Source: an uncultured Candidatus Saccharibacteria bacterium (lineage in GTDB: Bacteria > Patescibacteriota > Doudnabacteria > UBA920). From it: a DNA stretch of 64,000 nt. Below the pieces are notes generated by a model that had not been told where the DNA came from, ran no database searches, and saw only the letters and a list, made by a program, of their open reading frames with translations. Of the stretch, positions 1 through 49,834 are shown piece after piece (position 1 is the first letter of the stretch; each line of letters starts with the position of its first letter). The stretch covers positions 13,224 through 77,223 of the forward strand of contig CAZHIA010000008.1 of the NCBI GenBank assembly GCA_964532425.1. Direction: 5' to 3'. The translations under genes and the position numbers were made by a program.

Positions 1-1
1 A

Positions 2-205
2 CCCACAATTACCAATCCGGCTGCTACAACCAGTACAGCTCAGACTACGAGCAGTTCCCCAGTGCTTACCCAGAAATACAGTGTTAACCCTACTACCGGG
101 TTCTGCGATTGGGGTTCAGCTCCCCGTCTGAACTGTCCGGCAGGCCAGAGAGCTTTTGAAGATCCTAATAAGTGTACTCAGACGTGTACGGACCTCGGAT
201 TCTAG
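2..205 (+). CDS. 3' end of an upstream gene (partial); Thr/Ser/Pro-rich, Cys-containing C-terminal tail of a probable secreted protein
   Basis: Frame 2 is open from the window edge to TAG at 203-205 and is followed directly by a terminator hairpin. No start codon lies inside the window. Confidence 0.35.
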   Translation, partial: PTITNPAATTSTAQTTSSSPVLTQKYSVNPTTGFCDWGSAPRLNCPAGQRAFEDPNKCTQTCTDLGF

Positions 206-213
206 TATCAATC

Positions 214-246
214 AAAAATCCCCGCCTATAAGGCGGGGATTTTATG
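214..246 (+). terminator. rho-independent terminator
   Basis: Hairpin atccccgcc-tataa-ggcggggat followed by a T-run. Confidence 0.6.
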
Positions 247-377
247 TTTTTCTTCATTCATGGTATAATATTTAAAAGTTCCAATACGTAAGCCTGTTTT
301 TCTCGAAACAAATATTCCATCTGGCCAGACCATTGGACATCCTTCCTTTGTCTTTCTTTACTTAATACAAACTTAAA

Positions 378-393
378 TCCCGTCCCCACGGGA
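378..393 (+). promoter_or_regulatory. conserved 5' leader hairpin of paralog 1 (tcccg-tcccca-cggga), followed by AGAAA and about 22 nt to the ATG
   Basis: An equivalent hairpin plus AGAAA sits at the same distance upstream of all four paralogous genes (3833-3847, 44855-44870, 60409-60421). An A/T-rich -10-like hexamer (taatac) lies about 10 nt upstream. Confidence 0.45.
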
Positions 394-404
394 AGAAATC
401 AACA

Positions 405-3137
405 TTGAAGCACTCTATGTTCAAAAAACGCTTCTCAATGGCAGCCGTGCTCTGTCTGGCCCTTGCGGCCCTGCTGCCATCTTCGAGTTCGGCTTTAACT
501 TTAGCCGAACTGACCGGTACGGTAGCGAATTCCTCCTACACCCCGGTCACCATCACCTCAGCAACGAATAAGACCATAACCATTACGGCCACCCCGCTGT
601 CTTTTGCCAGCAACCAGTGGATGTACCAGGTCTCATGGAACCGGACCAAGAATGCCAAAGGATCTTTGTACGTCTCCTTAAAGTCCAACAACGGCACGAA
701 AGTTGCTGCGGTAGCTACCGCAGATCAGGCAGGATCGACTACCTTTACCGCTCTGCCTTCTACTGCTTACCGGGTCGAATTCTACTCCCAGCCAAATGGC
801 AAGGGCAGCCTGCTTGTCCGCAAGTACTTTACGGCACTGGCGGCAGATAAAGCGGTGGTGGGGAATTATAACCCTGCAAATTACAGCTCATTATATTCCG
901 GATTAACCGGAGTGGTTACGTCGGGTGGTAATCCTGCCACAGCTACTCCCGGAGCCACCAGCGGGTATACCCCGTCAGCCCAATTGATCCTCAGCCTTGC
1001 GTTGCCGGGCCAAGACCAGGCTATAAATAGTTCCAGTGGGTTAGATACTCCCGTAGAGGCCATTAGTACCAAAGTCGGCGGTCCTATTCCCATGAACAGC
1101 TCAGGCTTGGTTGTGGTTCGTCTGGCTTACCAGGGCAACGACGGCAAGTGCTATATGGCTAACCGCGACGGCACGTTCCTATTGCCGACTACGAACTGCA
1201 GTACTCTACCGAAATTACCGAATTCCAATTCAACTGTCTCTTTGTACGATATACCGTCCGTAGCGACTCCGTCTTTTAACTGGAATGCAGGCGGCGGCCA
1301 GTGCGCCTTCTGGGACAAGGATCAGCTGACAAAACAGCCATTCCTCAATCAGGCTATCTGTGGCACCATGGCCGGCCAGCCTATGCCGCCGACGAACTTC
1401 TGTGCCACGTACCCGAACGACTCCACGTGTGCCGGCGTCACTCAATCTGCACAAAAGATTCTTGATATGATCGCCGCAGTAGGACAAACCCAAAATATCG
1501 GCAGTACCGGAGGTTCTGATGCAGAAGTTGAAAGCATGAGCACCAGGGTTGGAGGTCCGATTCCCATGAACAACTCCGGATTAGTAGTTGTGCGTCTTGC
1601 GTATAAGGGCAATGACGGCAAATGCTACCTTTCCAACCGCGACGGTACATTCCTCCTGCCGACCACCAACTGCGGCAACCTGCCCACACTGCCAAATTCC
1701 AATAGCACCGTTTCTCCTTATGACATCAAGCCGGTAGCAACTTCTAATTTTAATTGGCTCGCAGGTTACGGTCAGTGTGCCTTCTGGGACAAGGACCGTA
1801 CAACCGGCGTGCCCTTCCTGAATCAGTCTATCTGCGGCACCATGGCCGGCCAGCCCATGCCAGTCATGAATTTCTGCGCAGCGCACCCTAATGATGAAAC
1901 ATGTAAAGGATATGTTCAATCCGCCCAAAACATTTTGAGTCTCGCTTTACCGGGCCAAGACCAGGCTATAAATAGTTCCAGTGGGTTAGATACTCCCGTA
2001 GAGGCCATTAGTACCAAAGTCGGCGGTCCTATTCCCATGAACAGCTCAGGCTTGGTTGTGGTTCGTCTGGCTTACCAGGGCAACGACGGCAAGTGCTATA
2101 TGGCTAACCGCGACGGCACGTTCCTATTGCCGACTACGAACTGCAGTACTCTACCGAAATTACCGAATTCCAATTCAACTGTCTCTTTGTACGATATACC
2201 GTCCGTAGCGACTCCGTCTTTTAACTGGAATGCAGGCGGCGGCCAGTGCGCCTTCTGGGACAAGGATCAGCTGACAAAACAGCCATTCCTCAATCAGGCT
2301 ATCTGTGGCACCATGGCCGGCCAGCCTATGCCGCCGACGAACTTCTGTGCCACGTACCCGAACGACTCCACGTGTGCCGGCGTCACTCAATCTGCACAAA
2401 AGATTCTTGATATGATCGCCGCAGTAGGACAAACCCAAAATATCGGCAGTACCGGAGGTTCTGATGCAGAAGTTGAAAGCATGAGCACCAGGGTTGGAGG
2501 TCCGATTCCCATGAACAACTCCGGATTAGTAGTTGTGCGTCTTGCGTATAAGGGCAATGACGGCAAATGCTACCTTTCCAACCGCGACGGTACATTCCTC
2601 CTGCCGACCACCAACTGCGGCAACCTGCCGAAGCTGCCGAACTCTAACTCAACCGTATCCTCAAGCGATATTCCCGCCATGGCCACCCCTTCATTCAATT
2701 GGATTGCCGGTTTTAGCCAATGTGCGTTTTGGGACAAAGACCAGATGACAAAAGAACCGTTCCTAAACCAGGCTATCTGTGGCACCATGGCCGGCCAGCC
2801 CATGCCGCCGACGAACTTCTGTACCGTGTATCCGAACGACCCAACCTGTAAGTTGCCAGCCGATGCTCCGTCCCAAGTGTATTATTCTGTCGGCCAAGTT
2901 ATCGACCCGAGACAGACATATGACTACGCAGGGCGTGCCATGTCCAAGAGTCAGTTCTGCGCAACGTATCCTTTCCAGAATTGTGGTGATTATTACGACA
3001 GCTGGTACCAGACTGGCGCTGCTCCGCAAACTTCCAGTCAGACCGCAACCGGCAAGGCGTGTTATGCGGCTTCGGATTGCTCGTCGGGCCAGGCCTGTTT
3101 CGGAGTATCTTACGGCAAGGCAGGAACCTGCCAATAG
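405..3137 (+). CDS. giant secreted Cys-rich tandem-repeat protein, paralog 1 of 4 (signal peptide, conserved N-domain, 4 x ~157-aa repeat modules with VGGPIPMN / NFNW / CAFWDKD / ICGTMAGQPMP motifs, Cys-rich C-tail)
   Basis: 910-aa ORF with an N-terminal hydrophobic signal peptide ending SSSA-LTLAELTG. Strong internal periodicity and many NxS/T sequons. The N-terminal ~140 aa are nearly identical to those of ORF 3872-6469. Confidence 0.85.
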   Translation: MKHSMFKKRFSMAAVLCLALAALLPSSSSALTLAELTGTVANSSYTPVTITSATNKTITITATPLSFASNQWMYQVSWNRTKNAKGSLYVSLKSNNGTKVAAVATADQAGSTTFTALPSTAYRVEFYSQPNGKGSLLVRKYFTALAADKAVVGNYNPANYSSLYSGLTGVVTSGGNPATATPGATSGYTPSAQLILSLALPGQDQAINSSSGLDTPVEAISTKVGGPIPMNSSGLVVVRLAYQGNDGKCYMANRDGTFLLPTTNCSTLPKLPNSNSTVSLYDIPSVATPSFNWNAGGGQCAFWDKDQLTKQPFLNQAICGTMAGQPMPPTNFCATYPNDSTCAGVTQSAQKILDMIAAVGQTQNIGSTGGSDAEVESMSTRVGGPIPMNNSGLVVVRLAYKGNDGKCYLSNRDGTFLLPTTNCGNLPTLPNSNSTVSPYDIKPVATSNFNWLAGYGQCAFWDKDRTTGVPFLNQSICGTMAGQPMPVMNFCAAHPNDETCKGYVQSAQNILSLALPGQDQAINSSSGLDTPVEAISTKVGGPIPMNSSGLVVVRLAYQGNDGKCYMANRDGTFLLPTTNCSTLPKLPNSNSTVSLYDIPSVATPSFNWNAGGGQCAFWDKDQLTKQPFLNQAICGTMAGQPMPPTNFCATYPNDSTCAGVTQSAQKILDMIAAVGQTQNIGSTGGSDAEVESMSTRVGGPIPMNNSGLVVVRLAYKGNDGKCYLSNRDGTFLLPTTNCGNLPKLPNSNSTVSSSDIPAMATPSFNWIAGFSQCAFWDKDQMTKEPFLNQAICGTMAGQPMPPTNFCTVYPNDPTCKLPADAPSQVYYSVGQVIDPRQTYDYAGRAMSKSQFCATYPFQNCGDYYDSWYQTGAAPQTSSQTATGKACYAASDCSSGQACFGVSYGKAGTCQ
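1005..2629 (+). repeat. perfect 945-bp tandem direct duplication inside paralog 1 (copy 1 1005-1684, copy 2 1950-2629; 680 bp at 100% identity, rest of each unit homologous)
   Basis: Read directly from the sequence. Identical minus-strand shadow ORFs at 1230-1493 and 2175-2438 (offset 945). Each 945-bp unit holds two ~157-aa protein modules. Confidence 0.9.
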
Positions 3138-3171
3138 TCGATTGTCTGAAGTTGTTCTTTAGTAATCTACA

Positions 3172-3206
3172 ATACAAGCCCCGTCCGAATGGATGGGGCT
3201 TGTTAT
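3172..3206 (+). terminator. rho-independent terminator after paralog 1
   Basis: Hairpin aagccccgtcc-gaat-ggatggggctt followed by a T-rich run. Confidence 0.55.
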
Positions 3207-3257
3207 TATTCGGTTAATCCAATGCTGGGTATTACTGTTTAGTGGTATAATAAATAC

Positions 3258-3803
3258 ATGCTTATCTATACTATATTTTTGTTTCTCATGCTGCTTTTGG
3301 CAATTGTAGTTTTGATTGTCATTACCAGCGCGTTTTTAGGTTTTTTACTCACCCGCGTGCCGTTCGTACCGACGGCTGCTAAGGACATTGAATTTGTAGT
3401 TGATGAATTAGGGATCTCAGGAAAAGATATCTTCTTTGACCTGGGTAGTGGAGACGGCAAGGTTGTTTTTTTAGTGCATGAACTCAGCGGCGCCAAATGC
3501 GTCGGATACGAACTTACCTGGTGGACCCATTTGCTGGCCAAGATCAAAGCAATGTTCAAAGGCGTGAGCCCGGATGTCCAGTTCAAGAATCAGAATTTTT
3601 TCAAACAGAGCTGGAGTGAAGCTGATTATGTGTATGGTTATCTCTATCCGCCTCTCATGGGCAGGGTAGAGGAGAAGTTCCTGAATGAATGTAAGCCGGG
3701 TAGTACGGCTGTTATTCGGGATTTTCCGCTGCCGAACTTAAAGCCAGTTGCAGTGTATAATCGGCCAAGGAACCATGAAATATATATTTATAAAAAACAG
3801 TAA
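3258..3803 (+). CDS. membrane-anchored class I SAM-dependent methyltransferase (small)
   Basis: N-terminal TM helix, then methyltransferase motif I DLGSGDGKVVF, with acidic and hydrophobic motifs downstream. Confidence 0.6.
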   Translation: MLIYTIFLFLMLLLAIVVLIVITSAFLGFLLTRVPFVPTAAKDIEFVVDELGISGKDIFFDLGSGDGKVVFLVHELSGAKCVGYELTWWTHLLAKIKAMFKGVSPDVQFKNQNFFKQSWSEADYVYGYLYPPLMGRVEEKFLNECKPGSTAVIRDFPLPNLKPVAVYNRPRNHEIYIYKKQ

Positions 3804-3832
3804 GCAATCTTTTTATAATCCAAATTAAGCAC

Positions 3833-3847
3833 TCCTGTCCTGCAGGA
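3833..3847 (+). promoter_or_regulatory. conserved 5' leader hairpin of paralog 2 (tcctg-tcctg-cagga) with TATAAT at 3814-3819
   Basis: Same architecture as 378-393: -10 box, ~13 nt, hairpin, AGAAA, ~22 nt, ATG. Confidence 0.5.
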
Positions 3848-3871
3848 AGAAACCAAATCACAAATTACCCT

Positions 3872-6469
3872 ATGTTTAAAAAGCCCATCATGTTGGTAGT
3901 CGTACTTTGTTTGGCCTTGGCCAGTCTGGTTCCCGGCACAGGTTCGGCCCTGACGCTCTCCGAAATAACGGGGACGCAGGCCGTATCTTCCTACACCCCG
4001 GTCACCATCACCTCAGCAACGAATAAGACCATAACTATTACGGCTACGCCGCTGTCTTTTGCCAGCAACCAGTGGATGTACCAGGTCTCATGGAACCGGG
4101 CCAAGAACGCCAAAGGGTCTTTGTACGTCTCTCTCAAGTCCAACAACGGCACGAAAGTTGCTACGGTAGCTACCGCTGACCAGGCAGGATCGACCACCTT
4201 TACCGCTTTGCCCTCCACTGCTTACCGGGTCGAATTCTACTCCCAGCCGAATGGCAAGGGGAGTCTCCTAGTCCGCAAGTACTTTACGGCGCTGGCGGCG
4301 GAGAAGGCAAGTGTTATTGCTAATCAACAAAATCCGATCACTCAGACAATTCCGAATGGTACTGCTCTTACTAGTCAGCAGCTATTGAATCTCGTCAAAG
4401 TGGATGCTGGGTGCCAAAGCCCTTCCCATGGTTGCGGTTATGCGGGCCTGCTCGCATCGTATGCAGCAAAAGTCGGTGGACCAATTGATATGAGCAAGAA
4501 TACCATGGTCCTGCAGATAGCGTACCGGACAACCGATGGCTGTTATTATTGGGACCGCGATGGGAAGTGGCAGCTGTCAGCTGACCCGAAAACCTGTACC
4601 GATTTGCCCGTCTTAGCTGGAGGGGTTATTCCCGATCCGGCCAATCCTGATTTTAATTGGACTGCCGCCCATGCCATGTGTGGTTGGAAGGATCGCGATA
4701 AAACATCCGGTATTCCTTTTATCAATAACAGCATTTGTGGCGGCACGACGTACATGCAGCGCGGGTTCCAGTGTTTGGAACACCAGGGTGATCCGAATTG
4801 CACAGGGTATACTGCAACAATCCAGGACTATATAAACTTGGTAAAGATGGATTCTGGTTGCCAGAGCGTGACTGACAATTGCGGGTATGGGGACCGGCTT
4901 GCGGCGGTATCCCAAAAAGTCGGGGCAGGAATTAACGTTAGTGCCAAACAAACTTCAGTAGTACAGATCTTCTATCGCACAGCTGACGGTTGCTACTACG
5001 CCGATCGCAGCGGGACATGGAAGATGCCGCTTGCTGCTTCCCAATGTACCCAGCTTCCGCTTATTGCGGGCAGTATTCCGGATCCGAACAATCCGGACTT
5101 TAACTGGACCGCGGCGCATGCTGCTTGCGCGTGGCTTGATCAGGACCATTTAACCAAACAACCGTTCATGAATGCTTCCATATGCGGGGGAACGGTATAT
5201 ACTCAGCAAGGGTATAATTGTGTTGAACATCAAAATGATCCGAGCTGCACCGGGTATACACCAACCATCCAAGACTATATCAATTTGGTACAGCGCGATT
5301 CCGGCTGCCAGAGCGTAACGGATAATTGCGGGTATGGCGACCGTTTAGCTGCGGTGTCCCAGAAAGTGGGTGCAGGAATTAACGTTAATGCCAAACAAAC
5401 CTCGGTATTGCAAATTTTTTACCGAACCAATGACGGTTGTTACTATTGGGACCGATCTGGCCAATGGAAACTTCCCGTAAAGAGCTGCGGTGAATTGCCT
5501 TTGCTGGTGAACGGAAGCTTGCCCGACCCCGCGAATCCTGACTTTAACTGGAATGCGTCCCGCGCAACCTGCGGCTGGCTCGACCAGGACCATTTAACCA
5601 AGCAGCCATTCATGAACAACAGTGTGTGCGGCGGTACAGTATATATGCAAAAAGGTTTTAACTGCGTGGAGCATTCGACCGATCCGACTTGTTCCGGATA
5701 TGCCAAGACAGTACAGGATTATATCAATCTCGTGCAATGGGATTCCGGCTGCCAGAGCGTGACTGACAATTGCGGGTATGGGGACCGGCTTGCGGCGGTA
5801 TCCCAGAAAGTGGGTGCAGGCCTGAATGTGACAGCAAAACAAACATCGGTACTGCAAATCTTCTATCGCACTGCGGACGGTTGTTACTACGCCGACCGTA
5901 GCGGGACGTGGAAGATGCCGCTTGCTACTTCCCAATGTACCCAGCTTCCGCTGGTCACGGGTAACTTGCCTGATCCCAATAATCCTGACTTTAATTGGAA
6001 TGGCGCACATGCATCGTGCGGCTGGTTGGACCAGGACCATCTCACCAAGCAGCCATTCATGAACAATAGTGTATGTGGCGGTACTGTATACATGCAAAAT
6101 GGCTGGTGCTCAACCCATCCTTCTGACAGCAGCTGTCAAACCCCTTACCCGGTTCGCGGCATTATGGATGGCAAACCGGCGTACCCGTGGACAACGCCAT
6201 CTCAGACCAGCAGCGGATATATGACCATAGACCAATTCTGTAGTTACTACAGCAATCTAGCTACCTTCCCGTACACGTATAAGTACAATGAATGCGTGGC
6301 ATACTACACAAGCATCCAGCAAAATGCATCTTTCGATACGTCCTCGCAAAGCGGCGCACAAGCGACGACCGGCAGCGGGGTAGGAGCCCCCTGTCGCGTT
6401 TGGACCCAGTGTGCAGCCGGTTTATGGTGTTATGATGTTACCCCTGACCATAACGGGTATTGCAGATAA
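3872..6469 (+). CDS. giant secreted Cys-rich tandem-repeat protein, paralog 2 of 4 (conserved N-domain; 4-5 x ~150-aa modules with QDYINLV / GCQS / DPxNPDFNW / CGW-D-D / ICGGT motifs; Cys-rich tail)
   Basis: 865-aa ORF with signal peptide. The N-domain is ~90% nt-identical to paralog 1 (3988-4299 vs 534-845). Internal repeats with period ~435-450 bp. Confidence 0.85.
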   Translation: MFKKPIMLVVVLCLALASLVPGTGSALTLSEITGTQAVSSYTPVTITSATNKTITITATPLSFASNQWMYQVSWNRAKNAKGSLYVSLKSNNGTKVATVATADQAGSTTFTALPSTAYRVEFYSQPNGKGSLLVRKYFTALAAEKASVIANQQNPITQTIPNGTALTSQQLLNLVKVDAGCQSPSHGCGYAGLLASYAAKVGGPIDMSKNTMVLQIAYRTTDGCYYWDRDGKWQLSADPKTCTDLPVLAGGVIPDPANPDFNWTAAHAMCGWKDRDKTSGIPFINNSICGGTTYMQRGFQCLEHQGDPNCTGYTATIQDYINLVKMDSGCQSVTDNCGYGDRLAAVSQKVGAGINVSAKQTSVVQIFYRTADGCYYADRSGTWKMPLAASQCTQLPLIAGSIPDPNNPDFNWTAAHAACAWLDQDHLTKQPFMNASICGGTVYTQQGYNCVEHQNDPSCTGYTPTIQDYINLVQRDSGCQSVTDNCGYGDRLAAVSQKVGAGINVNAKQTSVLQIFYRTNDGCYYWDRSGQWKLPVKSCGELPLLVNGSLPDPANPDFNWNASRATCGWLDQDHLTKQPFMNNSVCGGTVYMQKGFNCVEHSTDPTCSGYAKTVQDYINLVQWDSGCQSVTDNCGYGDRLAAVSQKVGAGLNVTAKQTSVLQIFYRTADGCYYADRSGTWKMPLATSQCTQLPLVTGNLPDPNNPDFNWNGAHASCGWLDQDHLTKQPFMNNSVCGGTVYMQNGWCSTHPSDSSCQTPYPVRGIMDGKPAYPWTTPSQTSSGYMTIDQFCSYYSNLATFPYTYKYNECVAYYTSIQQNASFDTSSQSGAQATTGSGVGAPCRVWTQCAAGLWCYDVTPDHNGYCR

Positions 6470-6496
6470 ACCCTGGAATATTCAATATCTTTTAAA

Positions 6497-6531
6497 CCCC
6501 CTGGCAAGCCAGGGGGTTTTAAAATGCTTGC
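6497..6531 (+). terminator. rho-independent terminator after paralog 2
   Basis: aaaccccctggc-aagcc-agggggtttt hairpin plus T-run. Confidence 0.6.
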
Positions 6532-6696
6532 TCCAATCCATCGCAAATACGGGTGGAAATTTATTTTTTGTCTTTAGCACGAGGTTTCGTATTGTCTGTG
6601 GGCTGGCCGCCGTCCATTTAGTCAATGGTTTTATCAGTACTTGCAAAGTAAGGCGGGTGTCCGGTATCCGGCTTCCGCTGGCAAAAGGAATGGTAC

Positions 6697-8049
6697 ATGA
6701 AAAGCATATTGCATAGCATGGGAGGGATTGTACTCGTGTTCATTGTCGTGTTACTGCTGTCCGGACCGGCCGTTCAGGCAGCCGCACTCAATCATCAGAT
6801 AAGCCTGCCTGACGGCTATACGTGGTGTTCGGATAGCGATATTACAGGCCTGTTAGACCAAATTAATGCCTTGCGGGCCAAAAATAACTTGCCAGCGCTG
6901 GTGATGGACCAGGTTGGTATGAAAGACGCCGAATTGCGGGCGGTACAGGCGGCCGAGTATTTGCAAAGCCATGCTCCGGGTTCACCCGGCTTCTTCCCGC
7001 ACGAAGGCTATGATACTACAGCCTCATCGCTCGGGTATAACCTCGTGAGCGAGAATATTGCTCTCTATTCGAACGATCCTTCAGCTATCGTAAACGGATT
7101 ATGGCAGGACAATTTGCATTTGGCTGCAATGCTGGATCGGCAGGCTAATGTCGCGGGTGTTTCCTGCGTAGTAAATGGCATTCCGTATTGGACGTTTGAA
7201 CCGGGAATTGGTTCTGCTGCTTCCGTTACCACCCCAACCCCAATCCAACCATCCGCTGCACCGGTCCCTGCGCCAGTGCTAAATCCGAACCCGATTACAA
7301 CTGCCACCGCCACTACTACAGCCAGCAGTGCTGTCACATCCGATGAATCAGATTTCCTGAGCTTGCTGAATACATACCGTACGCAGCAGGGGTTGGGAAC
7401 GGTTCAAATTTCACCGGTACTTCAGAGCGCTGCCAACTGGATGAGTAACGATATGGCCACGAGTAACAATATGGGCAGCCATATCGACACGTTAGGGCGC
7501 AACCCCTATAGCCGCCTGGCCGCGTTCGGTTACACCGGCTCTCCGTGGGGAGAGGTAATCGCCGGCGGGTATCAAAGCGCCCAAGATGTTCTCACGGGGT
7601 TCATTAATGCCTGCGATCCGGATGTAACCGGGGCATGCACGTATAATCACCGCAAAATGCTGCTTGGGGCAGGTTTTCAGACTGTAGGTATTTCTACTGT
7701 AAACGGGTATTGGGTAATAGATTTAGGGGGTGCACCGGACCAGTCAAGCGGTAGTCAGCAACCGCCAGCAACCAGTATGCCCAATCTGCCTGCAGGTACC
7801 ATACCAGCGGCACCCACGCCCACAACGGTAGGGGATCCTGTCCAGACAAGCCCGGCTCTACCGGGCGAACAAACGGACAATCGTGCTGCTCGCGGGCAAT
7901 CTGTCGACCCTTCTCCATTGCTGCCACCAGCACAATCAACGGCCTCCTCGACTGATGGTTTGTCACCAAATACTTACACAACCCCCAGGACGCAATCTTC
8001 TGGCAGGCACCGCAGGCATCGCATAGTATTCCATCCGGGCGCTCATTAA
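6697..8049 (+). CDS. secreted protein with two CAP/SCP (YkwD-like) domains and a Pro/Thr-rich C-terminal tail
   Basis: Signal peptide. Two segments match the CAP-domain pattern (LRAKNNLPAL...HAPG...GENIA... and FLSLLNTYRTQQGL...MSNDMA...SH...GEVIAGG...YW). Low-complexity P/T/S tail. Confidence 0.65.
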   Translation: MKSILHSMGGIVLVFIVVLLLSGPAVQAAALNHQISLPDGYTWCSDSDITGLLDQINALRAKNNLPALVMDQVGMKDAELRAVQAAEYLQSHAPGSPGFFPHEGYDTTASSLGYNLVSENIALYSNDPSAIVNGLWQDNLHLAAMLDRQANVAGVSCVVNGIPYWTFEPGIGSAASVTTPTPIQPSAAPVPAPVLNPNPITTATATTTASSAVTSDESDFLSLLNTYRTQQGLGTVQISPVLQSAANWMSNDMATSNNMGSHIDTLGRNPYSRLAAFGYTGSPWGEVIAGGYQSAQDVLTGFINACDPDVTGACTYNHRKMLLGAGFQTVGISTVNGYWVIDLGGAPDQSSGSQQPPATSMPNLPAGTIPAAPTPTTVGDPVQTSPALPGEQTDNRAARGQSVDPSPLLPPAQSTASSTDGLSPNTYTTPRTQSSGRHRRHRIVFHPGAH

Positions 8050-8051
8050 AA

Positions 8052-8083
8052 AGTAAATCCCCCATATTTGGGGGATTTATTAT
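8052..8083 (+). terminator. rho-independent terminator
   Basis: aaatccccca-tatt-tgggggattt hairpin plus T-run. Confidence 0.55.
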
Positions 8084-8197
8084 TGAGGGGTGTGGAAAAG
8101 TCAGTAATATGAAGGATTGTTTCTACAATATATTATTAAAAATATGCTTTATAATAAGGGATAAGCGATAAAATATGTAAACTTTGTAGAAATTTTC

Positions 8198-8226
8198 TTG
8201 ACAAATATTTACCGGTGGTTTACTCT
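8198..8226 (+). promoter_or_regulatory. candidate sigma70 promoter (TTGACA-17-TACTCT) upstream of the GNAT gene
   Basis: Consensus -35 hexamer, a weak -10 at 17-nt spacing, and a GGAGG RBS at about 8254. Confidence 0.3.
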
Positions 8227-8271
8227 GGATATAGGAGTGTGATTTTTCAGAAGGAGGAAGCATTCTAAGCA

Positions 8272-8727
8272 ATGGAGATCGGGTACCGGTATATATTGCC
8301 CGGGGAAGTAGAGGGAGGTAGCCTTACGAGCGAGATTAACCGCCTGCTGCGCCAGCTATCACCCAATTGTTGTCCACTGGATGCATCGCATCTGTCCCTG
8401 GCTACCAGTCATTCTCGCGTATTGACCGCGTGGAAAGGTCAACAACTGGTTGGCATGGCAACCCTGGTTCCTGTGTTCGCTCCGAGCGGATCCAGCGGGT
8501 TCATCCACGATGTGGTGACGGACGTGTCGGTACGCGGTTGGGGAGTTGGCCGCGAACTCATGAAACGCCTCGTCGAGGAAGCCGGACTCTTAGGTCTCAA
8601 GTTCGTAGAGCTCACTTGCCGCAGCGATCGCGTTGCGGCTAACCGTCTCTACCAGGACTCGGGATTCGTTGCGCGGGACACGAATGTGTACCGCAAAGCT
8701 ATTCTGCAAGGAGGAATAGTCATGTGA
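8272..8727 (+). CDS. GNAT family N-acetyltransferase
   Basis: Acetyl-CoA binding motif RGWGVGRELMKRLVEEA (Q/RxxGxG/A) in a ~150-aa protein. Confidence 0.7.
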   Translation: MEIGYRYILPGEVEGGSLTSEINRLLRQLSPNCCPLDASHLSLATSHSRVLTAWKGQQLVGMATLVPVFAPSGSSGFIHDVVTDVSVRGWGVGRELMKRLVEEAGLLGLKFVELTCRSDRVAANRLYQDSGFVARDTNVYRKAILQGGIVM

Positions 8728-9066
8728 ATAGGATTGATCGTAACGTTCTGTATCGCAAAGGAATATAATCTTTAGGCTCGCATCCTTTGTCTGCAGACCG
8801 CCATACATCCATTCACACCCAATATCAGGAGAGGAACACGCACGTCGTAAAAAGCTTTTCTTGCTTGCTTCATGCAAACAATATCAGCTTTTTACCCGAC
8901 TAACCCATAAATCTTCCGCCCCCGTCGTTCCTCTCCTCCTTTTCTTTTATAGATACTGATATACGGATTTGTACTGACGATACGGATGAATGCGGATAGA
9001 ATGCATCAGTATTATCAGTATCATCCGTACCAATCAGTATATCGGTATCATATTAATATTCGTAAC

Positions 9067-9870
9067 ATGAACATAAGATCAATTCTCAAAAATTTCGGCC
9101 TGAATGAAAAAGAGATAGCCGTGTATCTCGCTCTCGTGGAACTCGGTCCTTCACCGGTACGTACGGTGAGCGCAAAGACCGGTGTGAACCGGGGAACATC
9201 GTACGATATCTTGAAATCCCTCATTGAGCAGGGGATCGTCGCATATTACAACAAACAGACCAAGCAATACTTTGCTGCGGAATCTCCGGAAAAGCTTCTC
9301 AGTGCCCTGGAGGCTAAAGAGCAGCAGCTTGAGGAGGTCAAACAGCAGATCAAGGACAGCATGCCGGAGCTAAAGGGGCTGTTCGAAAAAGAAGGCGGCC
9401 GTCCTATAGTGAAACTGTACGAGGGTGGAACGGGGATCCGGTTCATCTTAGAAGATGTCTTACAAACGATGAAACGCGCCAGTCAAAAACTCTATTACGT
9501 TTATTCCTCAGCAGATATTAAGACTCATTTATACCGCAGTTATAAGGATTTTAACCGGGACCGTCTGAAAGCCAAGGTGAGCAACCGCGTCATAGCTTTT
9601 GGCAAGGGTGGGGAACTGGTCGGTCTTGATGAGCGCAAGTGGATGCCCGCCGAAAGTCCTGAAGGATATTCAGGCGGGTCCGCCACAATAGCCAGTAGGC
9701 CTTTGGGCGGAAATCTTGATACAAGTCCCGCTTACATTCTCATTTATGACGGTAAAGTGGCGATGATCTCGTTGACCGCGGCCCATGACCCCGTCGGTGT
9801 GATTATCGAAGACCAGGCATTATACCAGACCCAGCGAATGATCTTTGAATTTAACTGGAGCAAGTTATAA
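9067..9870 (+). CDS. TrmB-family transcriptional regulator (sugar/glycolytic regulator type)
   Basis: N-terminal winged HTH LNEKEIAVYLALVELGPSPVRTVSAKTGVNRGTSYDILKSLIEQGIV, coiled-coil linker and C-terminal effector domain. The longer ORF begins at 8986, but the ATG at 9067 fits the family N-terminus. Confidence 0.75.
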   Translation: MNIRSILKNFGLNEKEIAVYLALVELGPSPVRTVSAKTGVNRGTSYDILKSLIEQGIVAYYNKQTKQYFAAESPEKLLSALEAKEQQLEEVKQQIKDSMPELKGLFEKEGGRPIVKLYEGGTGIRFILEDVLQTMKRASQKLYYVYSSADIKTHLYRSYKDFNRDRLKAKVSNRVIAFGKGGELVGLDERKWMPAESPEGYSGGSATIASRPLGGNLDTSPAYILIYDGKVAMISLTAAHDPVGVIIEDQALYQTQRMIFEFNWSKL

Positions 9871-9909
9871 TTATGGTTTTGTGCGAAGTTATAAACTGAA
9901 CACGGAGGA

Positions 9910-10971
9910 ATGATGACTGAAACGTTAACGCGTATCGTAACCATCGGCGGCGGTGGAGGCCATGCCCAAATTCTCAAGGGATTAGGAGAGGATGAAGGAT
10001 TGCAAATTACGGCAATCACTACAGCCAGTGATGGCGGTGGCGACACGGACACCATAGCGAGGGAATTCAAGAGTTACGGGGTCAACGGGTCGCTTGGTGA
10101 TGTCGGCAAGTGCTTGTGCGCCCTTTCGCCTGATCGGCAGCTCGCGGAAGAGCTTCTTTACCGGTTCCCCTGTGGCAGCCGGAAAGGGCAGTCGTTGAAG
10201 AACAGCCTATTTTTGGCACTGATCTGCAAATACGGACCCGAGCGAGCGCTTGATCGCATGCACCGACTGCTTTCCATCCATCCTCGCCATCAGGTTTTGC
10301 CGGTAAGTTTCGAGCGAACCAACCTTATGGTAAGGCTGAAAAGCGGTCAGATCCTGTCTGGCGAGGGGTATATCGATACGCTCTCACAGAACAAACTCTG
10401 GAAAGCTGAACATCACCAGATTGTTGATGTCTGGCTGAAACCTAAGATTCCGGCGCAACCCGCGGCAATCAGGGCAATCGAACAAGCTGACTTTATCATT
10501 CTGGGCGTAGGTGACTTGTACACGAGTGTCATACCGGCACTCTTGCCGGACGGCTTAGCTCAGGCGATCAAGCATTCGTCCGCCCCGGTCATTGCACTCA
10601 TCAACCTTATGACTAAGATAGGAGAAACGGACGGGTATGCGGCGAGCGATTTTGTGCAGGAGATGACCCGCCGGATTGGGGACCGTTACCCGGATTTTAT
10701 TGTGTGTAATGCCAGCCCTATTCCCAAAAACCTCTTGAGGCGGTATCATCGAAAGGAGCACAAAGTAGCCGTGGTCGCAGATACTCTCGGGGATATCGGC
10801 AACCAGTCGGTCCTCGTACGGGCAGATCTGTGGACTTCCAACGAGCAAGGCCACATTATCCATGACCCGGTAAAGACTGCGGCTGCCCTGAAAGAGATCA
10901 TGGCAGGGGAGATGGCAGGAGTGAGCTCAGCGCGTTCAACGTATAAAGTGCTGCAGGCGCGCGCAAGTTAG
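9910..10971 (+). CDS. YvcK/CofD-family protein (UPF0052; gluconeogenesis factor / 2-phospho-L-lactate transferase-like)
   Basis: N-terminal IVTIGGGGGHAQILKGL...ITAITTASDGGGDTDTI signature of the CofD/YvcK family. Confidence 0.7.
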   Translation: MMTETLTRIVTIGGGGGHAQILKGLGEDEGLQITAITTASDGGGDTDTIAREFKSYGVNGSLGDVGKCLCALSPDRQLAEELLYRFPCGSRKGQSLKNSLFLALICKYGPERALDRMHRLLSIHPRHQVLPVSFERTNLMVRLKSGQILSGEGYIDTLSQNKLWKAEHHQIVDVWLKPKIPAQPAAIRAIEQADFIILGVGDLYTSVIPALLPDGLAQAIKHSSAPVIALINLMTKIGETDGYAASDFVQEMTRRIGDRYPDFIVCNASPIPKNLLRRYHRKEHKVAVVADTLGDIGNQSVLVRADLWTSNEQGHIIHDPVKTAAALKEIMAGEMAGVSSARSTYKVLQARAS

Positions 10972-11048
10972 TCTTGCACCCGCCATACCGCTACCGACCG
11001 GCGACACGCAGTACTGTCGTCGGTTTCCCAAAATTATTTTAATATATC

Positions 11049-11789
11049 ATGAGAAGCCAGATCATTATCTTAGCTGCCGGCAAAGGAACGAGAATGAACA
11101 ATGCTGACGTTCCCAAGGTCCTGGTCATGCTCAAACAAAAACCGTTGATCCTTCACCTACTCCATGAGCTGGAAAAGATCAATCAGCTGGCGAAGCCTAT
11201 TGTGGTCGTCGGGTACCAGCACACGCTTGTCCGCGGAGTGCTCGGTGACTCGTATGAATATGCCTACCAGGAACAGCAGCTCGGAACTGCCCATGCGGTC
11301 ACATGCGCGGACAGTAAGATACGCGCGCAAAATGTTTTAGTCTTGTACGGCGATATGCCGTTTATTCGGGCAGAGAGCCTGAAAGAGCTTATCCGATATC
11401 ACCACGGGTACCGGGAGGTTCTCACGATGTTCACTTCCACGGTTCCGAGTTTTGATGAATTTCCCTCATTACTCCGTTTTGGTAGGATCATCCGGAATGT
11501 TTCGGGCCAGGTAGTAAAGATCACCGAATACAAGGATGCTACGCCTGAAGAGCAGGCGATCAGGGAGGTTAATCCGGGTATTTATATGTTCAATACCGAC
11601 TGGCTTCGGGCAAATATCGGCAAGGTCGGACGCCTGAATGTCCAGGGGGAATTTTATCTCACTGACATGGTCGAAGTGGCTATTCGCGATGGCCACCGTG
11701 TCCGCACCTTGCCGGTTCCCCCCGCGCAGGTGCTCGGAGTCAACAGTCCCGAAGAGCTGCAGTTTGCCGAACGGGTGAGCGTCGGATAA
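11049..11789 (+). CDS. sugar-phosphate nucleotidyltransferase, GlmU N-terminal-domain-like (no acetyltransferase domain)
   Basis: LAAGKGTRM pyrophosphorylase signature, VPKVL, QEQQLGTAHAV, VLYGDMPFI motifs. 246 aa. Confidence 0.7.
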   Translation: MRSQIIILAAGKGTRMNNADVPKVLVMLKQKPLILHLLHELEKINQLAKPIVVVGYQHTLVRGVLGDSYEYAYQEQQLGTAHAVTCADSKIRAQNVLVLYGDMPFIRAESLKELIRYHHGYREVLTMFTSTVPSFDEFPSLLRFGRIIRNVSGQVVKITEYKDATPEEQAIREVNPGIYMFNTDWLRANIGKVGRLNVQGEFYLTDMVEVAIRDGHRVRTLPVPPAQVLGVNSPEELQFAERVSVG

Positions 11790-11882
11790 AGGAAGAGCGG
11801 AAAGGAAAACAGCGGAGCTGTCCGGATTTTGGAAAATTCAAAATCAGGCGGACATATCCGCTGTAGTACAAGGGGAAGACTG

Positions 11883-12314
11883 CTACCGGTAGAGCCGTTC
11901 CTTGATCCAAGGCTCGCTGCCTTTGATATTGTAGAGAACAAGGTCCGGGCTGACCCTGCTCATCCGGTGGAATACCCCGGGAGGAAGCACGATGGCTTGC
12001 GGAGCATGAAGATAGTATGTGGTGCCGTCTTCTAATTCTAACTCCATTTCTCCACGCAAGACAGTGTATACTTCCGGCGTATTGGGTCCATGGTGGTGGT
12101 AGTGTTGTTCTACACAGACCGTTGAATGCTCGCTGGTTGCGTAGTGGACCTGGAGATGGTTAAAGCGATAGCCGTCCTCTCCAGGATCTGGACCGATAAG
12201 GATGCAAAGAGGTTTTGCTCCCAGCGTGTGAACTTGGCATCCGGAAGCATCGCCTTGTGGCTCATGTACAGCAATATCTGCAAGGTCTAAGGCTCCCATA
12301 GCGTCTGGTCCCAT
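11883..12314 (-). CDS. cupin-domain protein
   Basis: Cupin motifs HYHHHGPNTPEVYTVLRGE ... LPPGVFHRM. Confidence 0.5.
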   Translation of the reverse strand: MGPDAMGALDLADIAVHEPQGDASGCQVHTLGAKPLCILIGPDPGEDGYRFNHLQVHYATSEHSTVCVEQHYHHHGPNTPEVYTVLRGEMELELEDGTTYYLHAPQAIVLPPGVFHRMSRVSPDLVLYNIKGSEPWIKERLYR

Positions 12315-38926: not shown

Positions 38927-39376
38927 TTTAATTTCTAATTCTAATTTCCAACCTGCCTGCCGGCAGGCAGGTTTCCAATAAAATACCCAATGTCCAAATT
39001 TGGAAATTATTGCATTAGAAATTTTATTAGGAATTAGGAATTGGATATTGGAAATTAAGATCATCTTGCTTTTCCCTTCTCCTCGTGTTCTGCCCATACT
39101 TTAACTTTTCCACCGTCGCTGAATAACTGCTTATTTTAGCCGAAATTTTAGCTATTGACCCCCGTCAAATTAGGTGTATCCTGTAAATAGGAAAGGAATT
39201 AACGGATGCAAAACCAGGTACTGGTTAGGGTGACTTTTCAATGAAGTCGCGATAAGCCCAAGGCCGCTTAAGGCCGTTGCATCAAGCACCAAATAGGAAC
39301 ACACAATTCGCACAATGAGAAAAGTACACCCTTAGCGGCAGGCTTGTTCTTGAAAAAGACAAAGCCTGCTGCTGTT

Positions 39377-40051
39377 TTATTTATAGTTATTTGTATCTTT
39401 TTCAGCCGGACGCAAACCGCTCGCCGCTTCCCCGGTCCTGACAATCCGACGGTCGGGAATGAACCACATGAGCGCCACGAGCACAAAGAGAATATCGGAA
39501 ACCCATGGAAGCCAGAAAGCAGCGCCGACTGCCAGTGCATACAAGGTGAGTGATAGCCATCCTTTGTAGTCCTCGCCGAGTGCGGAGGCAAGCCGCGAAT
39601 CCTTGCCCTGGCTGGCAACAATAGCGCGCTGCAAAATTTGGTAAGCAATGGCAGAAAGCAGCAGAATGCCGGCATACAGGGCAGTAGGCCATGAGCCGCC
39701 ATGGTTCTCACCAAGCCAGCCGGTCACGAACGGGACCAGTGAGAGCCAAAATAACAAATGAAGGTTGGCCCACATAATTTTCCCGGTTACTTTTTTTGTG
39801 ACATGCAGCAAATGGTGGTGGTTGTTCCAGTATGCACCGACCACTTCGAAGCTTAAGGCATACGTTAAAAATACCGGCAGCAGCGGCTTAAACACGGCCG
39901 GGTTGGACCCGGAAGGTACTTTCATTTCCAATACCGTGATAGTGAGTATAATGGCAAACACGCCGTCGCTGAATGTCTCTAAACGCGCCGGTCCGGGCGG
40001 TTCGGTTGTGGCAACCGGCTGGTTCTGTTCGTTTGGAAGAGGTAAATCCAT
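39377..40051 (-). CDS. TMEM175/DUF1211-family membrane protein (putative K+ channel)
   Basis: RLETFSDGVFAIILTITVLE signature and 6 TM helices. Confidence 0.7.
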   Translation of the reverse strand: MDLPLPNEQNQPVATTEPPGPARLETFSDGVFAIILTITVLEMKVPSGSNPAVFKPLLPVFLTYALSFEVVGAYWNNHHHLLHVTKKVTGKIMWANLHLLFWLSLVPFVTGWLGENHGGSWPTALYAGILLLSAIAYQILQRAIVASQGKDSRLASALGEDYKGWLSLTLYALAVGAAFWLPWVSDILFVLVALMWFIPDRRIVRTGEAASGLRPAEKDTNNYK

Positions 40052-40144
40052 ACGTACTTACACGATCACGGCTATTTTTTCTTGCATCCAATAAAAAACC
40101 GGGGGGCCTTTTCAGGTCCCCCGAAGGGTTGTTGTTGGCCTGGA

Positions 40145-43100
40145 TCAGAAAATGAAGCGCAGGCCGAGCTGCAGGCGTCGGGCATTGGTGCCGTCAGGGA
40201 ATCCCTGGGCGGCCGTGCCAGTGCCGAGACTGGTTTGATAGGTAAGCGTGGGAACGCCGGAGACGAGCGCATACGTGTACGCGCGGGTATTCACCGAAGT
40301 GAAGTACGGGCTGTTGAACACGTTGAATCCGTCAAACGTGAACATGGCTTTGTAGCGTTCATGAATCGTGACGGATTTGCTCAGGCGCAGGTCAATGCGG
40401 GTGATCTGGTCAACGAGCACGCTGGACGTCGGTAGGAATGGCGCACGGGTGTTGCCGCCGTACCCGTTCAAAGTGCTACCGGTGAAAGCGACAGCATAGC
40501 CGGCAGGCACATAGGCCGAAGACAGTGAGACCACCGGTGTAACAGCCGGGGCTGACTGGAACGTACCCAGGCCTGAAAGGCTCCAGCCGTTGAGCAAATA
40601 CTTCAAGCGATGGTCATTGCTGACGAGTGTCGGGCTGTAGCTGCCGTTCATGACGAGCCGGTGCCGGACATCGAGCGCAGCCGTGCCTTTTTCCACGCGG
40701 TAGTTGCCGGGCATGTAGCTCTGCGGGCCGCCGCTGGCGAAAATATTTGGCGTGCCGGCGAAGCCTTGTCCCTGATCAATCGCATGCGACCATGTATAGG
40801 CGGCGCTGCCGGTCAGTCCGTGACTGAAACGCTTGCTCAATTGGACAGACAGGCCGTTGTACCAGCTGTTCAAGCCGGCATCAATGATGTTGATGCGGCT
40901 GTAGCGAGTATCGACGCGGTTGCTGCGAATGTAGACCGGCGTCGAATATGTGAATGCCTGCGTCGGGTTGCCCGGGGTGCCGATGACGTTGTAAGTCACG
41001 GTCGGGCCCGGGGCGCCGATGTTGATGTCATTGACCGAGGTCAGATGCAGTCCACGGCTCCACATGCCGGAGACCGTGAGTGCGAGGTCGCGGGCAAGCT
41101 GCCGTTCAATGGCGAGATTTGCTTGCTGCGTGTACGGAGCGCGGAAGTCGCTGGCTGCAATATTCAGACTAACCGAACCGGCCGGAGGGTTGTAGTTTCC
41201 GGAGTTCGGCAGCACATTCGGGAAGACCGGTCCTGCCGCCTTGTCAGCGGCATTCGACGATTGCAGCGAGATCGACTTTTGGTAGATGCCGTTACCGAGG
41301 AAGAACGTATTGATAAGTCCTCCCGGGTAGCGGGCATAAAACATGCCGTATCCTCCGCGCAGGACAGTCTTGCTTTGGCTGTCGAGCGAGTAGGCAAAGC
41401 CGATGCGCGGCGCAAAGGCTCCGGCAAACGTCGGGATGACCCCGGTAGCCTTATAGTCAGGGTTGGTGACGGTCGGCTGGGGTAGGGCGCTGTAGTCGTA
41501 GCGGACGCCTAAGTTCAAGGTCAGACGCTGCGTGATTTTGAGCTGGTCCTGAACGAAGAACGCGTAATCCTTAATCGCGAAGTCGACCAGGGGATTGCCG
41601 ATAGTCTGCGAAAAAGACGTCCAGTTTTTGGTTCCAGTCGTATTGCCGGTCAGGTCAGCCGCCAGAGCGCTGAATGACGGATAGCTGTAGGTACCGGTGC
41701 GGTTGAACAGCATATTCGTCAGGTCGCGTGTGCGCATGAACTCAAAACCGAACTTGACGGTCTGGGAGCCTTTGATCCAGGTGAGCGTATCCGCAATTTG
41801 GTGGCGCGTTTCGATCGGGTTCAGGCGCGGATAATCCGTAGCCGTTCCAAGGTAGCTCTGTCCCGTGATGCTGATGCCCAAGAAACCTTGCGGCACAATA
41901 CTCGAGGGAAGAGCTAAGCTCTGGTTCGGGTAGTCGAACAACTTGTCGTAAAACCAGTTGTATCGAAGCTCGTTGACCATGGTCGGCGTGGGGATGAAGG
42001 TCCACGAGGCGCGGCCGTATTTGTCGCGCACCGAGGAATCGACGTTGTTGCCGACGCCATTTCCGTTATTCAGTACTGCCTGGGTTTGCAGCCCGTTGGG
42101 TGAGACCCAGCGAAGCATATTCATCCCGACAGTAAACGAGTGGCGTTCATTCGGCCGGTAGTCAATCTTGGCATACCCAAGGTTCTGGTTGACCGAACGC
42201 GGAACGGTTTGAAATTCGCGATTGAGGAACGTCCGGGCGGCCGCACATTGTTCCGGCGTAGCCGGGGCGCCGCAGGTGCCGATGAACTGGCCGGTAGTGC
42301 TAAACAGCGGATTTCCTGCTCCGGTGATTGAAGCGATGAGAGGGAAGTCCCGCCACAAGCCTTCGTAGTTAACGAAGTAGAACAGCTTGTCGCGGATGAT
42401 CTTGCCACCAAGGCTGCCGCCGAGCTGGTTGCGCTTTTCGGTCGGGTTGAACCGCTTGCCCGTGGTCGGGTCAATGGTTGCAAAAATATCCGTGGCATTA
42501 AAGTTCTGGTTCCGGAAGAACCAGTACCCGGTTCCGTGGAATTCATTGCCGCCGCTGCGGGTCACCGTGTTGACGACACCGCCCATGGCGCGTCCGAATT
42601 CAGCGGAAAAGTTGTTGGAAACAACTTGGAACTCCTGTACCGCATCTTGTCCGATTTGGGATCCGATGCGGGTACGGCCGGCGTTTTCATTATAGTAACC
42701 GTTGGTCGTATCGCCGCCGTCCGTTAGGAAGGTGTTGCCGCCGGCAATGCCGCGGAACGAGATAAGCCCGAACGTACCGTCAGGAACGACCGCGGGCGAC
42801 AGGAGAACGAACGAGTCCACGCGGCGGCCATTGATCGGGAGATCCTGAATCTGGGTCGATCCAACCACTTGTGACACGTCGGTCTTGGTGGAATCGACAA
42901 TAGGCGCTGCAGCCTCGACTTGCACTGAGGTTGCGGCGCTGGCCAGCTGGAGTTCGATGTTGAGCATCAAATTTTGGCCGACCAGGACCTGGATGTCCTT
43001 GGCTTTGTACTCGGCAAAACCGGGACTTGAGACCATAACGCTGTAGCCTTCCGCAGGCGTCAGCGAGGGAGCGGAGAATATTCCGGCCTCGGTTGTCGCC

Positions 43101-43282
43101 ATAGCGCGCTGAATACCTTTGGTTTCATTGACAATGAAGACCTTGGCATTCGGAATGGCAGCGCCTGACGGGTCATGTACGGAGCCGGAAATGGCTCCGA
43201 GACCGGCCACAGACTGGCCGAAGGCCAGCGAGGCGAAGATAAACAAAAATACGACTCCCGCGAGCGCGGTAAATCGTCTCAT
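40145..43282 (-). CDS. TonB-dependent outer-membrane receptor with N-terminal carboxypeptidase-regulatory-like domain
   Basis: Signal peptide, CarbopepD_reg-like beta-sandwich (SGSVHDPSGAAIPNAKVFIVNETKG...), plug domain (TFLTDGGDTTNGYYN), a 1045-aa beta-barrel and C-terminal LRFIF with a terminal aromatic. Locally higher GC. Confidence 0.8.
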   Translation of the reverse strand: MRRFTALAGVVFLFIFASLAFGQSVAGLGAISGSVHDPSGAAIPNAKVFIVNETKGIQRAMATTEAGIFSAPSLTPAEGYSVMVSSPGFAEYKAKDIQVLVGQNLMLNIELQLASAATSVQVEAAAPIVDSTKTDVSQVVGSTQIQDLPINGRRVDSFVLLSPAVVPDGTFGLISFRGIAGGNTFLTDGGDTTNGYYNENAGRTRIGSQIGQDAVQEFQVVSNNFSAEFGRAMGGVVNTVTRSGGNEFHGTGYWFFRNQNFNATDIFATIDPTTGKRFNPTEKRNQLGGSLGGKIIRDKLFYFVNYEGLWRDFPLIASITGAGNPLFSTTGQFIGTCGAPATPEQCAAARTFLNREFQTVPRSVNQNLGYAKIDYRPNERHSFTVGMNMLRWVSPNGLQTQAVLNNGNGVGNNVDSSVRDKYGRASWTFIPTPTMVNELRYNWFYDKLFDYPNQSLALPSSIVPQGFLGISITGQSYLGTATDYPRLNPIETRHQIADTLTWIKGSQTVKFGFEFMRTRDLTNMLFNRTGTYSYPSFSALAADLTGNTTGTKNWTSFSQTIGNPLVDFAIKDYAFFVQDQLKITQRLTLNLGVRYDYSALPQPTVTNPDYKATGVIPTFAGAFAPRIGFAYSLDSQSKTVLRGGYGMFYARYPGGLINTFFLGNGIYQKSISLQSSNAADKAAGPVFPNVLPNSGNYNPPAGSVSLNIAASDFRAPYTQQANLAIERQLARDLALTVSGMWSRGLHLTSVNDINIGAPGPTVTYNVIGTPGNPTQAFTYSTPVYIRSNRVDTRYSRINIIDAGLNSWYNGLSVQLSKRFSHGLTGSAAYTWSHAIDQGQGFAGTPNIFASGGPQSYMPGNYRVEKGTAALDVRHRLVMNGSYSPTLVSNDHRLKYLLNGWSLSGLGTFQSAPAVTPVVSLSSAYVPAGYAVAFTGSTLNGYGGNTRAPFLPTSSVLVDQITRIDLRLSKSVTIHERYKAMFTFDGFNVFNSPYFTSVNTRAYTYALVSGVPTLTYQTSLGTGTAAQGFPDGTNARRLQLGLRFIF

Positions 43283-43591
43283 ATACCGAATCCTCCTTAA
43301 GGAGTTGAAATGTGATTTCCCAAAGCACGCCCCTGAAGCTGTGTGAGGTGGGATGTTTGAGAAATGGTTTGATCGAGATCAATCCACTTTTGGTATAGCG
43401 AAAAAACAGCAATCTGTCTAATTGTTATTTTTCATAATTTGTGATATAATTAAGATAGATTTTATATAAAGCTGCTTAAGAAAAGCGAAAGTTTAATGTA
43501 TCTGACAAACGAGTATGTTTGTCAGGATTAATTGCTTTTTTGAGCATTCGAAATAAAAGGTCTGGCAGCGTCAAAATAATTTTTATATACC

Positions 43592-44818: not shown

Positions 44819-44854
44819 TTTCATTTTAGGTTAATTCAACCTTATATCAACTAA

Positions 44855-44870
44855 TCCCGCCCCTGCGGGA
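44855..44870 (+). promoter_or_regulatory. conserved 5' leader hairpin of paralog 3 (tcccgc-ccct-gcggga), followed by GGAAATAAAC and 21 nt to the ATG
   Basis: Same element as upstream of the other three paralogs. Preceded by tatatcaa, a -10-like box. Confidence 0.45.
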
Positions 44871-44891
44871 GGAAATAAACACACACGTTCT

Positions 44892-47903: not shown

Positions 47904-47918
47904 AGCAGTACAGCATAA

Positions 47919-47955
47919 AAAACAAGCCTCCGGAAAATGCCGGAGGCTTGTTTGT
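47919..47955. terminator. bidirectional terminator between paralog 3 and the convergent minus-strand gene
   Basis: aaaaacaagcctccgg-aaaat-gccggaggcttgtttgtttt. Confidence 0.6.
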
Positions 47956-47982
47956 TTTACAAGTCCATGAGCTGTACTTGTA

Positions 47983-49802: not shown

Positions 49803-49834
49803 AGGCCATATTAGCATTTAAACATAGAAACATA

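Follow-up and report, generated by a model that had tools for sequence, protein, structure and literature searches.

Mosaic gene-conversion patches are known from bacterial multigene families and antigenic-variation systems (e.g., pilE/pilS and vlsE), and non-reciprocal homologous recombination classically leaves a sharply bounded patch of full identity. In yeast, tandem arrays have been described to gain repeats by out-of-register repair of double-strand breaks (synthesis-dependent strand annealing). The Periscope Proteins (Sgo_0707 SHIRT, Rib/alpha C, SasG/Aap, Esp, and CdrA) are repeat-containing surface proteins of variable length, whose repeats are proposed to be gained or lost by intragenic recombination between segments identical at the DNA level (PMC8201768). 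Here we describe a gene from an uncultured Candidatus Saccharibacteria bacterium, situated in a 64,000-nucleotide (nt) stretch of contig CAZHIA010000008.1 (hereafter the window), in which two segments of a tandem module array are identical. The gene, paralog 1 (positions 417-3137, forward strand, based on the open reading frame [ORF] list and translation), encodes the 906 amino acid (aa) protein P0001.

An identical block between diverged flanks

The two segments, at positions 1005-1684 and 1950-2629 (both forward strand), match at 680/680 nt, which is the maximal exact run at an offset of 945 nt. The block is in frame and begins on a codon boundary of the ORF. Its first copy spans module 1 from codon 11 onward and module 2 up to codon 79, and its second spans the same codons of modules 3 and 4. 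Module periods are 474, 471, and 474 nt, and the 945-nt offset therefore equals two modules. No exact repeat in the window is longer (the next longest are 56, 51, and 47 nt), and the chance probability of identity over 680 nt is ~1e-123 at the ~66% background identity between modules. The absence of differences in 680 nt places an upper bound of 0.44% (95%) on divergence between the copies. The initial annotation had recognized this identity, read the repeat unit as two protein modules, and proposed a very recent event, and these three points are upheld. Its reservation that the repeat might be an assembly artifact is also justified. Tandem Repeats Finder reported no tandem arrays at positions 1-12000; it is silent on the block because its longest period is 500, below the 945-nt offset.

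Identity ends abruptly on both sides. The first mismatches, at 1004 and 1685, immediately adjoin the block, and at both edges identity falls to 58%-63% within one or two bases. On the left, the 30 nt beside the block match at 19/30 at the 945-nt offset. On the right, the remaining 265 of the 945 nt form a unique spacer between the block copies (1685-1949, forward strand; the module 2 tail and the 30-nt head of module 3), which matches the sequence 945 nt downstream at 154/265 positions (58%). Hence, the locus is not the perfect 945-base-pair (bp) tandem duplication that had been annotated. The same annotation described the remainder of the unit as homologous, which is true of the module 2 and module 4 tails (147/235 matching, 88/235 different) and not of the final 30 nt, where a match of 7/30 amounts to no homology. 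Of 79 codons in the right flank (which span the right edge of the block), 31 differ synonymously and 26 non-synonymously, 57 in all, a divergence comparable to that of module 1 versus module 2. Flank identity is at the level seen between non-equivalent modules, with synonymous sites near saturation. Divergence is not uniform along a 945-nt unit, with 0/680 differences next to 88/235, and post-duplication divergence cannot account for both an unchanged block and 37% differences over the 235 nt beside it. Both flanks are old, with the block superimposed as a patch on older sequence.

These boundaries bear directly on whether the locus arose when a two-module unit of 945 bp was cleanly and very recently duplicated in tandem, an origin in which the non-identical remainder would be an older part of the unit. 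An offset of exactly two modules and perfect identity over 680 nt are compatible with such an event, and one of the recombination routes considered below begins with such a step. However, the geometry of unequal crossover is such that a single event leaves at least 945 identical nt, and we reject a one-step duplication at this offset for that reason: the identity observed is 265 nt short, and the missing part shows near-saturated synonymous differences. Divergences of 0% and 37% in adjoining segments are impossible from one event. Moreover, a donor for either diverged tail was sought elsewhere in the window, and no near-identical sequence was found. Clean duplication is thus an extremely improbable origin of the repeat.

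A mosaic module array and probable intragenic recombination

The array consists of four Cys-containing modules of 157-158 aa each, with DNA starts at 975, 1449, 1920, and 2394 (all forward strand). Module 1 (975-1448), of A type, and module 2 (1449-1919), of B type, were delimited by repeat family (D1/D3 for module 1), module alignment, and profile match, and share 66% nt and 69% aa identity. Modules 1 and 3 are 98% identical, adjacent modules are 66%-69% identical at the nt level, and nt identity in the array outside the identical pair is 65%-81%. Module alignment shows that module 3 (1920-2393) has a 30-nt head of its own (1920-1949) and is otherwise identical to module 1. This head differs from that of module 1 at 11/30 nt but is identical at 9/10 aa; being A-type in protein yet so different in nucleotides, it is a remnant of old A-type sequence. 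The first 236 nt of module 4 (2394-2867) are identical to module 2, whereas its tail (2630-2867) is nearer to the A-type tail of module 1 (77% nt and 84% aa identity) than to the B-type tail of module 2 (65% nt and 70% aa). The same grouping is favored by positions at which two tails share a state against the third (42 sites for modules 1 and 4, 25 for modules 1 and 2, and 16 for modules 2 and 4; bootstrap 0.98). Module 4 is a chimera of a B head and a tail closer to the A type, and the A-B-A-B' arrangement proposed previously holds only in part. The module 3 head and module 4 tail could be remnants of one old A' module. Relatives with three modules exist (P0003, P0004, P0005, and P0011).

The block has the features of a gene-conversion or recombination patch: identity that includes synonymous sites, abrupt boundaries, older homologous surroundings, and phylogenetic incongruence between tract and flanks (the module 4 head is B-type and its tail A-type). 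As in known gene-conversion tracts, a sharp patch of full identity is set in old paralogous sequence. Unlike in pilE/pilS or vlsE, donor and recipient are in the same ORF, two modules apart, and there are neither silent cassettes nor signs of a dedicated mechanism or of repeated switching. We consider that the patch probably results from very recent homologous recombination within the gene's own repeats, in which the old flanks were retained. In such an event, 680 bp would have been copied to a position two modules away, covering the greater part of an A module together with the first half of the B module after it. With the flanks unaltered, the product would be an identity patch with sharp limits. 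The mechanism, direction, and ancestral module number are those that we infer from the product.

Three routes give the observed product, and all are intragenic homologous recombination. The first is in-register gene conversion in an array that would already have been four modules long. In the second, an A-B-A' array would have suffered a break in the third module (A') between its positions 30 and 236; one broken end would have invaded module A, with synthesis running into B, and the new strand would have re-annealed one module out of register, taking the array from three to four modules, A-B-A-(B/A'). The third would require two successive unequal crossovers, with a gain of 945 nt followed by a loss of 474 nt. 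We favor the second route, which is the simplest history, or the first. As in out-of-register repair in yeast, a single event by the second route would explain the copied tract across module types, the additional module, and the chimeric junction module; in this bacterium, however, the mechanism is putative and the ancestral three-module state is deduced.

A protein-level parallel to this event was found in P0011, a distant homolog from another assembly (a 24.8-kb NCBI contig), which has a 133-aa exact patch between modules 1 and 3, also at a two-module offset and with diverged module ends. The event in P0001 seems to have been exceptional as well as recent, since modules in the other paralogs share 53%-77% nt identity with no exact run above 56 nt. 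Its likely consequences are a protein with two identical A modules and a 680-bp direct repeat on which recombination could act to add or remove further two-module units. The event itself would be a textbook case of recombination within a gene that contains repeats, an ordinary process, and its family context, with an Ig-like N-terminal domain, unmatched modules, and a C-terminal 4-Cys motif, is of more interest.

Several observations weigh against this explanation. The affinity of the module 4 tail to the A type is moderate, and the branch leading to module 4 is long. The parallel in P0011 is a protein-level observation only. No outgroup or sister strain was present in the collections searched, leaving the pre-event state, direction, and ancestral module number without a reference. 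Two further points concern the assembly. A 680-nt repeat is longer than typical paired-end inserts, and the assembler may consequently have chosen the number of passes through the loop. In addition, two nearly identical copies (at least ~95% alike) may have been merged into one consensus.

An artifact of this kind, whether a wrong number of passes through a block-spacer-block loop or the merging of similar copies by bubble-popping or consensus into a falsely perfect repeat, would be in keeping with the source of the sequence, a metagenome-derived 81-kb NCBI contig, and with the absence of any other long exact repeat from the 64 kb. Furthermore, contigs (k=31) from the matching sequencing run, SRR11567520, are short and broken at every repeat. 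Against this, the spacer at 1685-1949, which shares no exact repeat of at least 31 nt with any other sequence, forms the arc of a loop in an assembly graph, and in a de Bruijn graph it would attach only to the block end and the block start. Any molecule with the spacer would therefore have block-spacer-block, and four modules would be the minimum. Merging would require copies already ~95% or more alike, and the sharp mosaic against flanks of 58%-63% identity would persist. Across the whole ORF the reading frame is unbroken, and P0011 shows the same kind of patch in a different assembly. Independent assembly also agrees with the window, without mismatches over 12.7 kb: Logan contigs (k=31) of SRR11567520 reproduce positions 2771-4018 and 38955-50380 with 0 mismatches, and the former stops exactly at 32-nt (2769) and 47-nt (3989) repeats of the window. 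The lack of mismatches and the termination at repeats indicate that those stretches are faithful to the reads. We consider an assembly artifact unlikely and favor recent recombination, although neither the module number nor the "100%" identity of the gene in the public assembly should be trusted before confirmation by reads.

A rare paralog family and the possibility of programmed variation

The gene is one of four paralogs in the window (417-3137, 3872-6469, 44892-47903, and 60441-63518), and three more are encoded on the same 81-kb contig outside it (seven in all). In a search of 1.84 billion cluster representatives, a profile of 27 modules matched only 31 proteins, which makes the family a very rare one. 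Its modules have no Pfam match above threshold and no solved or viral fold match. N-terminal domains (N-domains; 504-866, 3959-4321, 44979-45341, and 60528-60890) are 66%-92% identical in aa sequence between paralogs, and modules of different paralogs are 20%-40% identical. For example, paralogs 1 and 2 share exact N-domain runs of 51 nt (594/4049) and 47 nt (534/3989), and the signal peptides of P0001 and P0004 are identical. The conserved 5' ends suggest inter-paralog homogenization or very strong constraint. Within the other paralogs, modules share 53%-77% nt identity, with aa identity exceeding nt identity, indicating that these arrays are old, selectively maintained, and not frequently homogenized. 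Paralog 2 also contains a 56-nt exact repeat (4859-4914 versus 5750-5805), the family's second-longest within a gene and likewise at a two-module offset (891 nt).

This setting raises the question of programmed or selected variation, in which module shuffling and changes in copy number would drive contingency or antigenic variation, with the block as a snapshot of ongoing switching. Seven paralogs on one 81-kb contig that combine a near-constant N-domain with highly divergent module arrays speak for such a mechanism, as do identity patches at a two-module offset in two independent proteins (P0001 and P0011). The 680-nt direct repeat would be a good recombination substrate, and length variation is known in surface proteins whose repeats are identical in DNA sequence (PMC8201768). 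However, 12 or more other modules in the window are old, and the excess of aa over nt identity indicates long-term stability and purifying selection. Scans near the gene showed no short sequence repeats, invertase sites, or silent cassettes, only ordinary terminators. With respect to phase variation more generally, the window contains no inverted repeats of at least 40 nt, and positions 1-12000 lack tandem arrays, as described above. A change in copy number would leave the frame unshifted, the unit being divisible by three. The gene is not a contingency locus of the simple-sequence-repeat or invertible-element kind, and the contingency-like reading of the initial annotation is unsupported. Switching by programmed variation is thus very unlikely to explain the block, for which recent recombination of the ordinary kind is preferred.

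A related proposal, that the block is a snapshot of module shuffling in a lineage-restricted family with a nearly constant Ig-like "handle" and fast-diverging arrays of a previously unseen disulfide-type module, also seems quite unlikely. In this reading, recombination would favor pairing of modules two apart, as in P0001 and, independently, P0011. If true, shuffling would make new module combinations and numbers, and this uncultured bacterium would have an analog of antigenic or host-range variation. Should heterogeneity in module number be demonstrated by long reads, the family would become a candidate for surface variation in its uncultured lineage.

Like the Periscope Proteins, P0001 is predicted to be secreted and carries folded modules in a tandem array behind an N-terminal domain. 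Its two-module (A-B) register also recalls the G5-E unit of SasG. Unlike the Periscope Proteins, which are characterized by long, highly DNA-identical tandem repeats, P0001 has one identical segment pair only, as just modules 1 and 3 and the first half of modules 2 and 4 are identical. Moreover, no LPXTG or other anchor could be recognized in its translation, and its modules are related to no periscope repeat family in either fold or sequence. Membership of P0001 in the Periscope Proteins is not supported.

The nearest Pfam family is DUF7374 (PF24089), which has no known function. The whole paralog 2 protein matches it weakly, with an E value of 7.7e-8 and 32.6 bits (cutoff of 27), while none of its stretches pass alone and a two-module fragment, at 26.3 bits, falls just under the cutoff. 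The match covers ~55 residues of the ~150-aa module and is confined to paralog 2; paralog 1 gave no hit at the gathering threshold of 27 bits.

An exact 60-nt block pattern was absent from the genome contig collection, and an exact 67-nt spacer pattern was absent from the metagenome contig collection. The family alignment had no match among metagenome contigs and, among genome contigs, recovered only a distant N-domain fusion. None of the collections searched contained a second assembly of this species, and no close relatives of P0011 were found. The distant fusion (L004, positions 9923-11398) is encoded beside recA in a Ca. Saccharibacteria metagenome-assembled genome (CAYOXN010000012). It is a 491-aa protein with an N-domain 33% identical to those described here, followed by two PA14-like repeats parted by TP-rich linkers (the repeats were judged by eye). 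Given this fusion, the N-domain appears to be a portable "handle" that carries different binding modules in distant lineages. A 1969-aa protein from another organism, P0027, appears by eye to combine a CAP-like domain, one module, and Ig-like repeats. Both fusions would fit an extracellular binding role.

A second organism with a related genome is represented by a Logan contig from SRR11567520 (L002, positions 4868-9642), on which a 753-aa gene lies directly upstream of P0009 (796 aa). P0025, which has an N-domain and modules, is also 753 aa long, and the gene upstream of P0009 was matched to it by length only; P0025 and P0009 may be tandem paralogs. Five N_methyl (pilin-like) genes follow in a row downstream.

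Protein architecture and genomic neighborhood

A protein identical to P0001 is present in an NCBI-derived collection, where it forms a singleton cluster. The gene has an alternative TTG start at 405 and is its own transcription unit, with intrinsic terminators on both sides. The upstream terminator (215-243, forward strand), a terminator-like 13-bp stem followed by a T run, belongs to the upstream paralog P0004, whose C-terminus is encoded at positions 1-204 (read by eye); the downstream terminator lies at 3174-3203 (forward strand).

Inspection of the translation suggests that P0001 begins with a Sec-type signal peptide, MFKKRFSMAAVLCLALAALLPSSSSA/LTL (417-503, forward strand), in which a positively charged n-region, a hydrophobic core, and a small-residue c-region can be recognized by eye. 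This is followed by the N-domain common to all paralogs (504-866, forward strand; ~120 aa), which is predicted to be an Ig/FN3-like beta-sandwich. Its AlphaFold2 model (predicted local distance difference test score [pLDDT] of 84) has seven strands, and Foldseek returned weak matches to FN3, the chitinase A N-domain, and other Ig-like sandwiches (E values of 3e-3 to 3e-2). A Ser/Thr/Gly-rich linker joins this domain to the modules. The module model (pLDDT of 85) had no significant Foldseek match in PDB or BFVD, the module profile had no significant match in PDB, and paralog 1 as a whole had no family match in Pfam.

At its C-terminus, P0001 has a 4-Cys motif, CYAASDCSSGQACFGVSYGKAGTCQ (3060-3134, forward strand, from the translations). 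A motif of this type (~C-x5/6-C-x3/5-C-x9/11-C) also occurs at the extreme C-terminus of P0002, P0003, P0005, P0008, P0019, P0021, and P0029, and had only insignificant Dickkopf-like matches in Pfam. It may form a small disulfide knot or act as a sorting or anchoring signal. The translation shows neither LPXTG nor a C-terminal hydrophobic tail, and ends in the 4-Cys motif; a sortase gene is encoded at 48954-49802 in the window, to which we draw no link. Together, the signal peptide, Ig-like domain, and disulfide-type modules suggest that the function of P0001 is most likely extracellular binding, as judged from sequence features.

All four paralogs in the window are preceded, 25-40 nt upstream of the ATG, by a small hairpin (378-393, 3832-3848, ~44855-44870, and ~60409-60421). 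Compensatory changes are seen between copies (CCCG/CGGG, CCUG/CAGG, and CCCU/AGGG), and a purine-rich GGAAGAAA follows the hairpin, unusually far (~20 nt) from the ATG. Hairpin and purine tract may constitute a leader element common to the family. RNAalifold found no consensus structure in the 5' leaders, as the alignment misplaced one hairpin, whereas single-sequence folds show the hairpin.

Between paralogs 1 and 2 lies a small methyltransferase ORF (3258-3803) with weak matches to DOT1 and an archaeal protein-lysine methyltransferase family. A secreted CAP/SCP-domain protein is encoded directly after paralog 2 (6697-8049). This neighbor and the CAP-like fusion in P0027 hint at a functional link. 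TrmB-like and aKMT-like matches, together with the Ca. Saccharibacteria locus, had raised the possibility of an archaeal or CPR host. An archaeal host is rejected, because DnaG, sigma-70, the sortase, and a protein that combines CarboxypepD_reg with an outer-membrane beta-barrel point to a bacterium; the last of these, with the sortase, suggests that the host is probably diderm.

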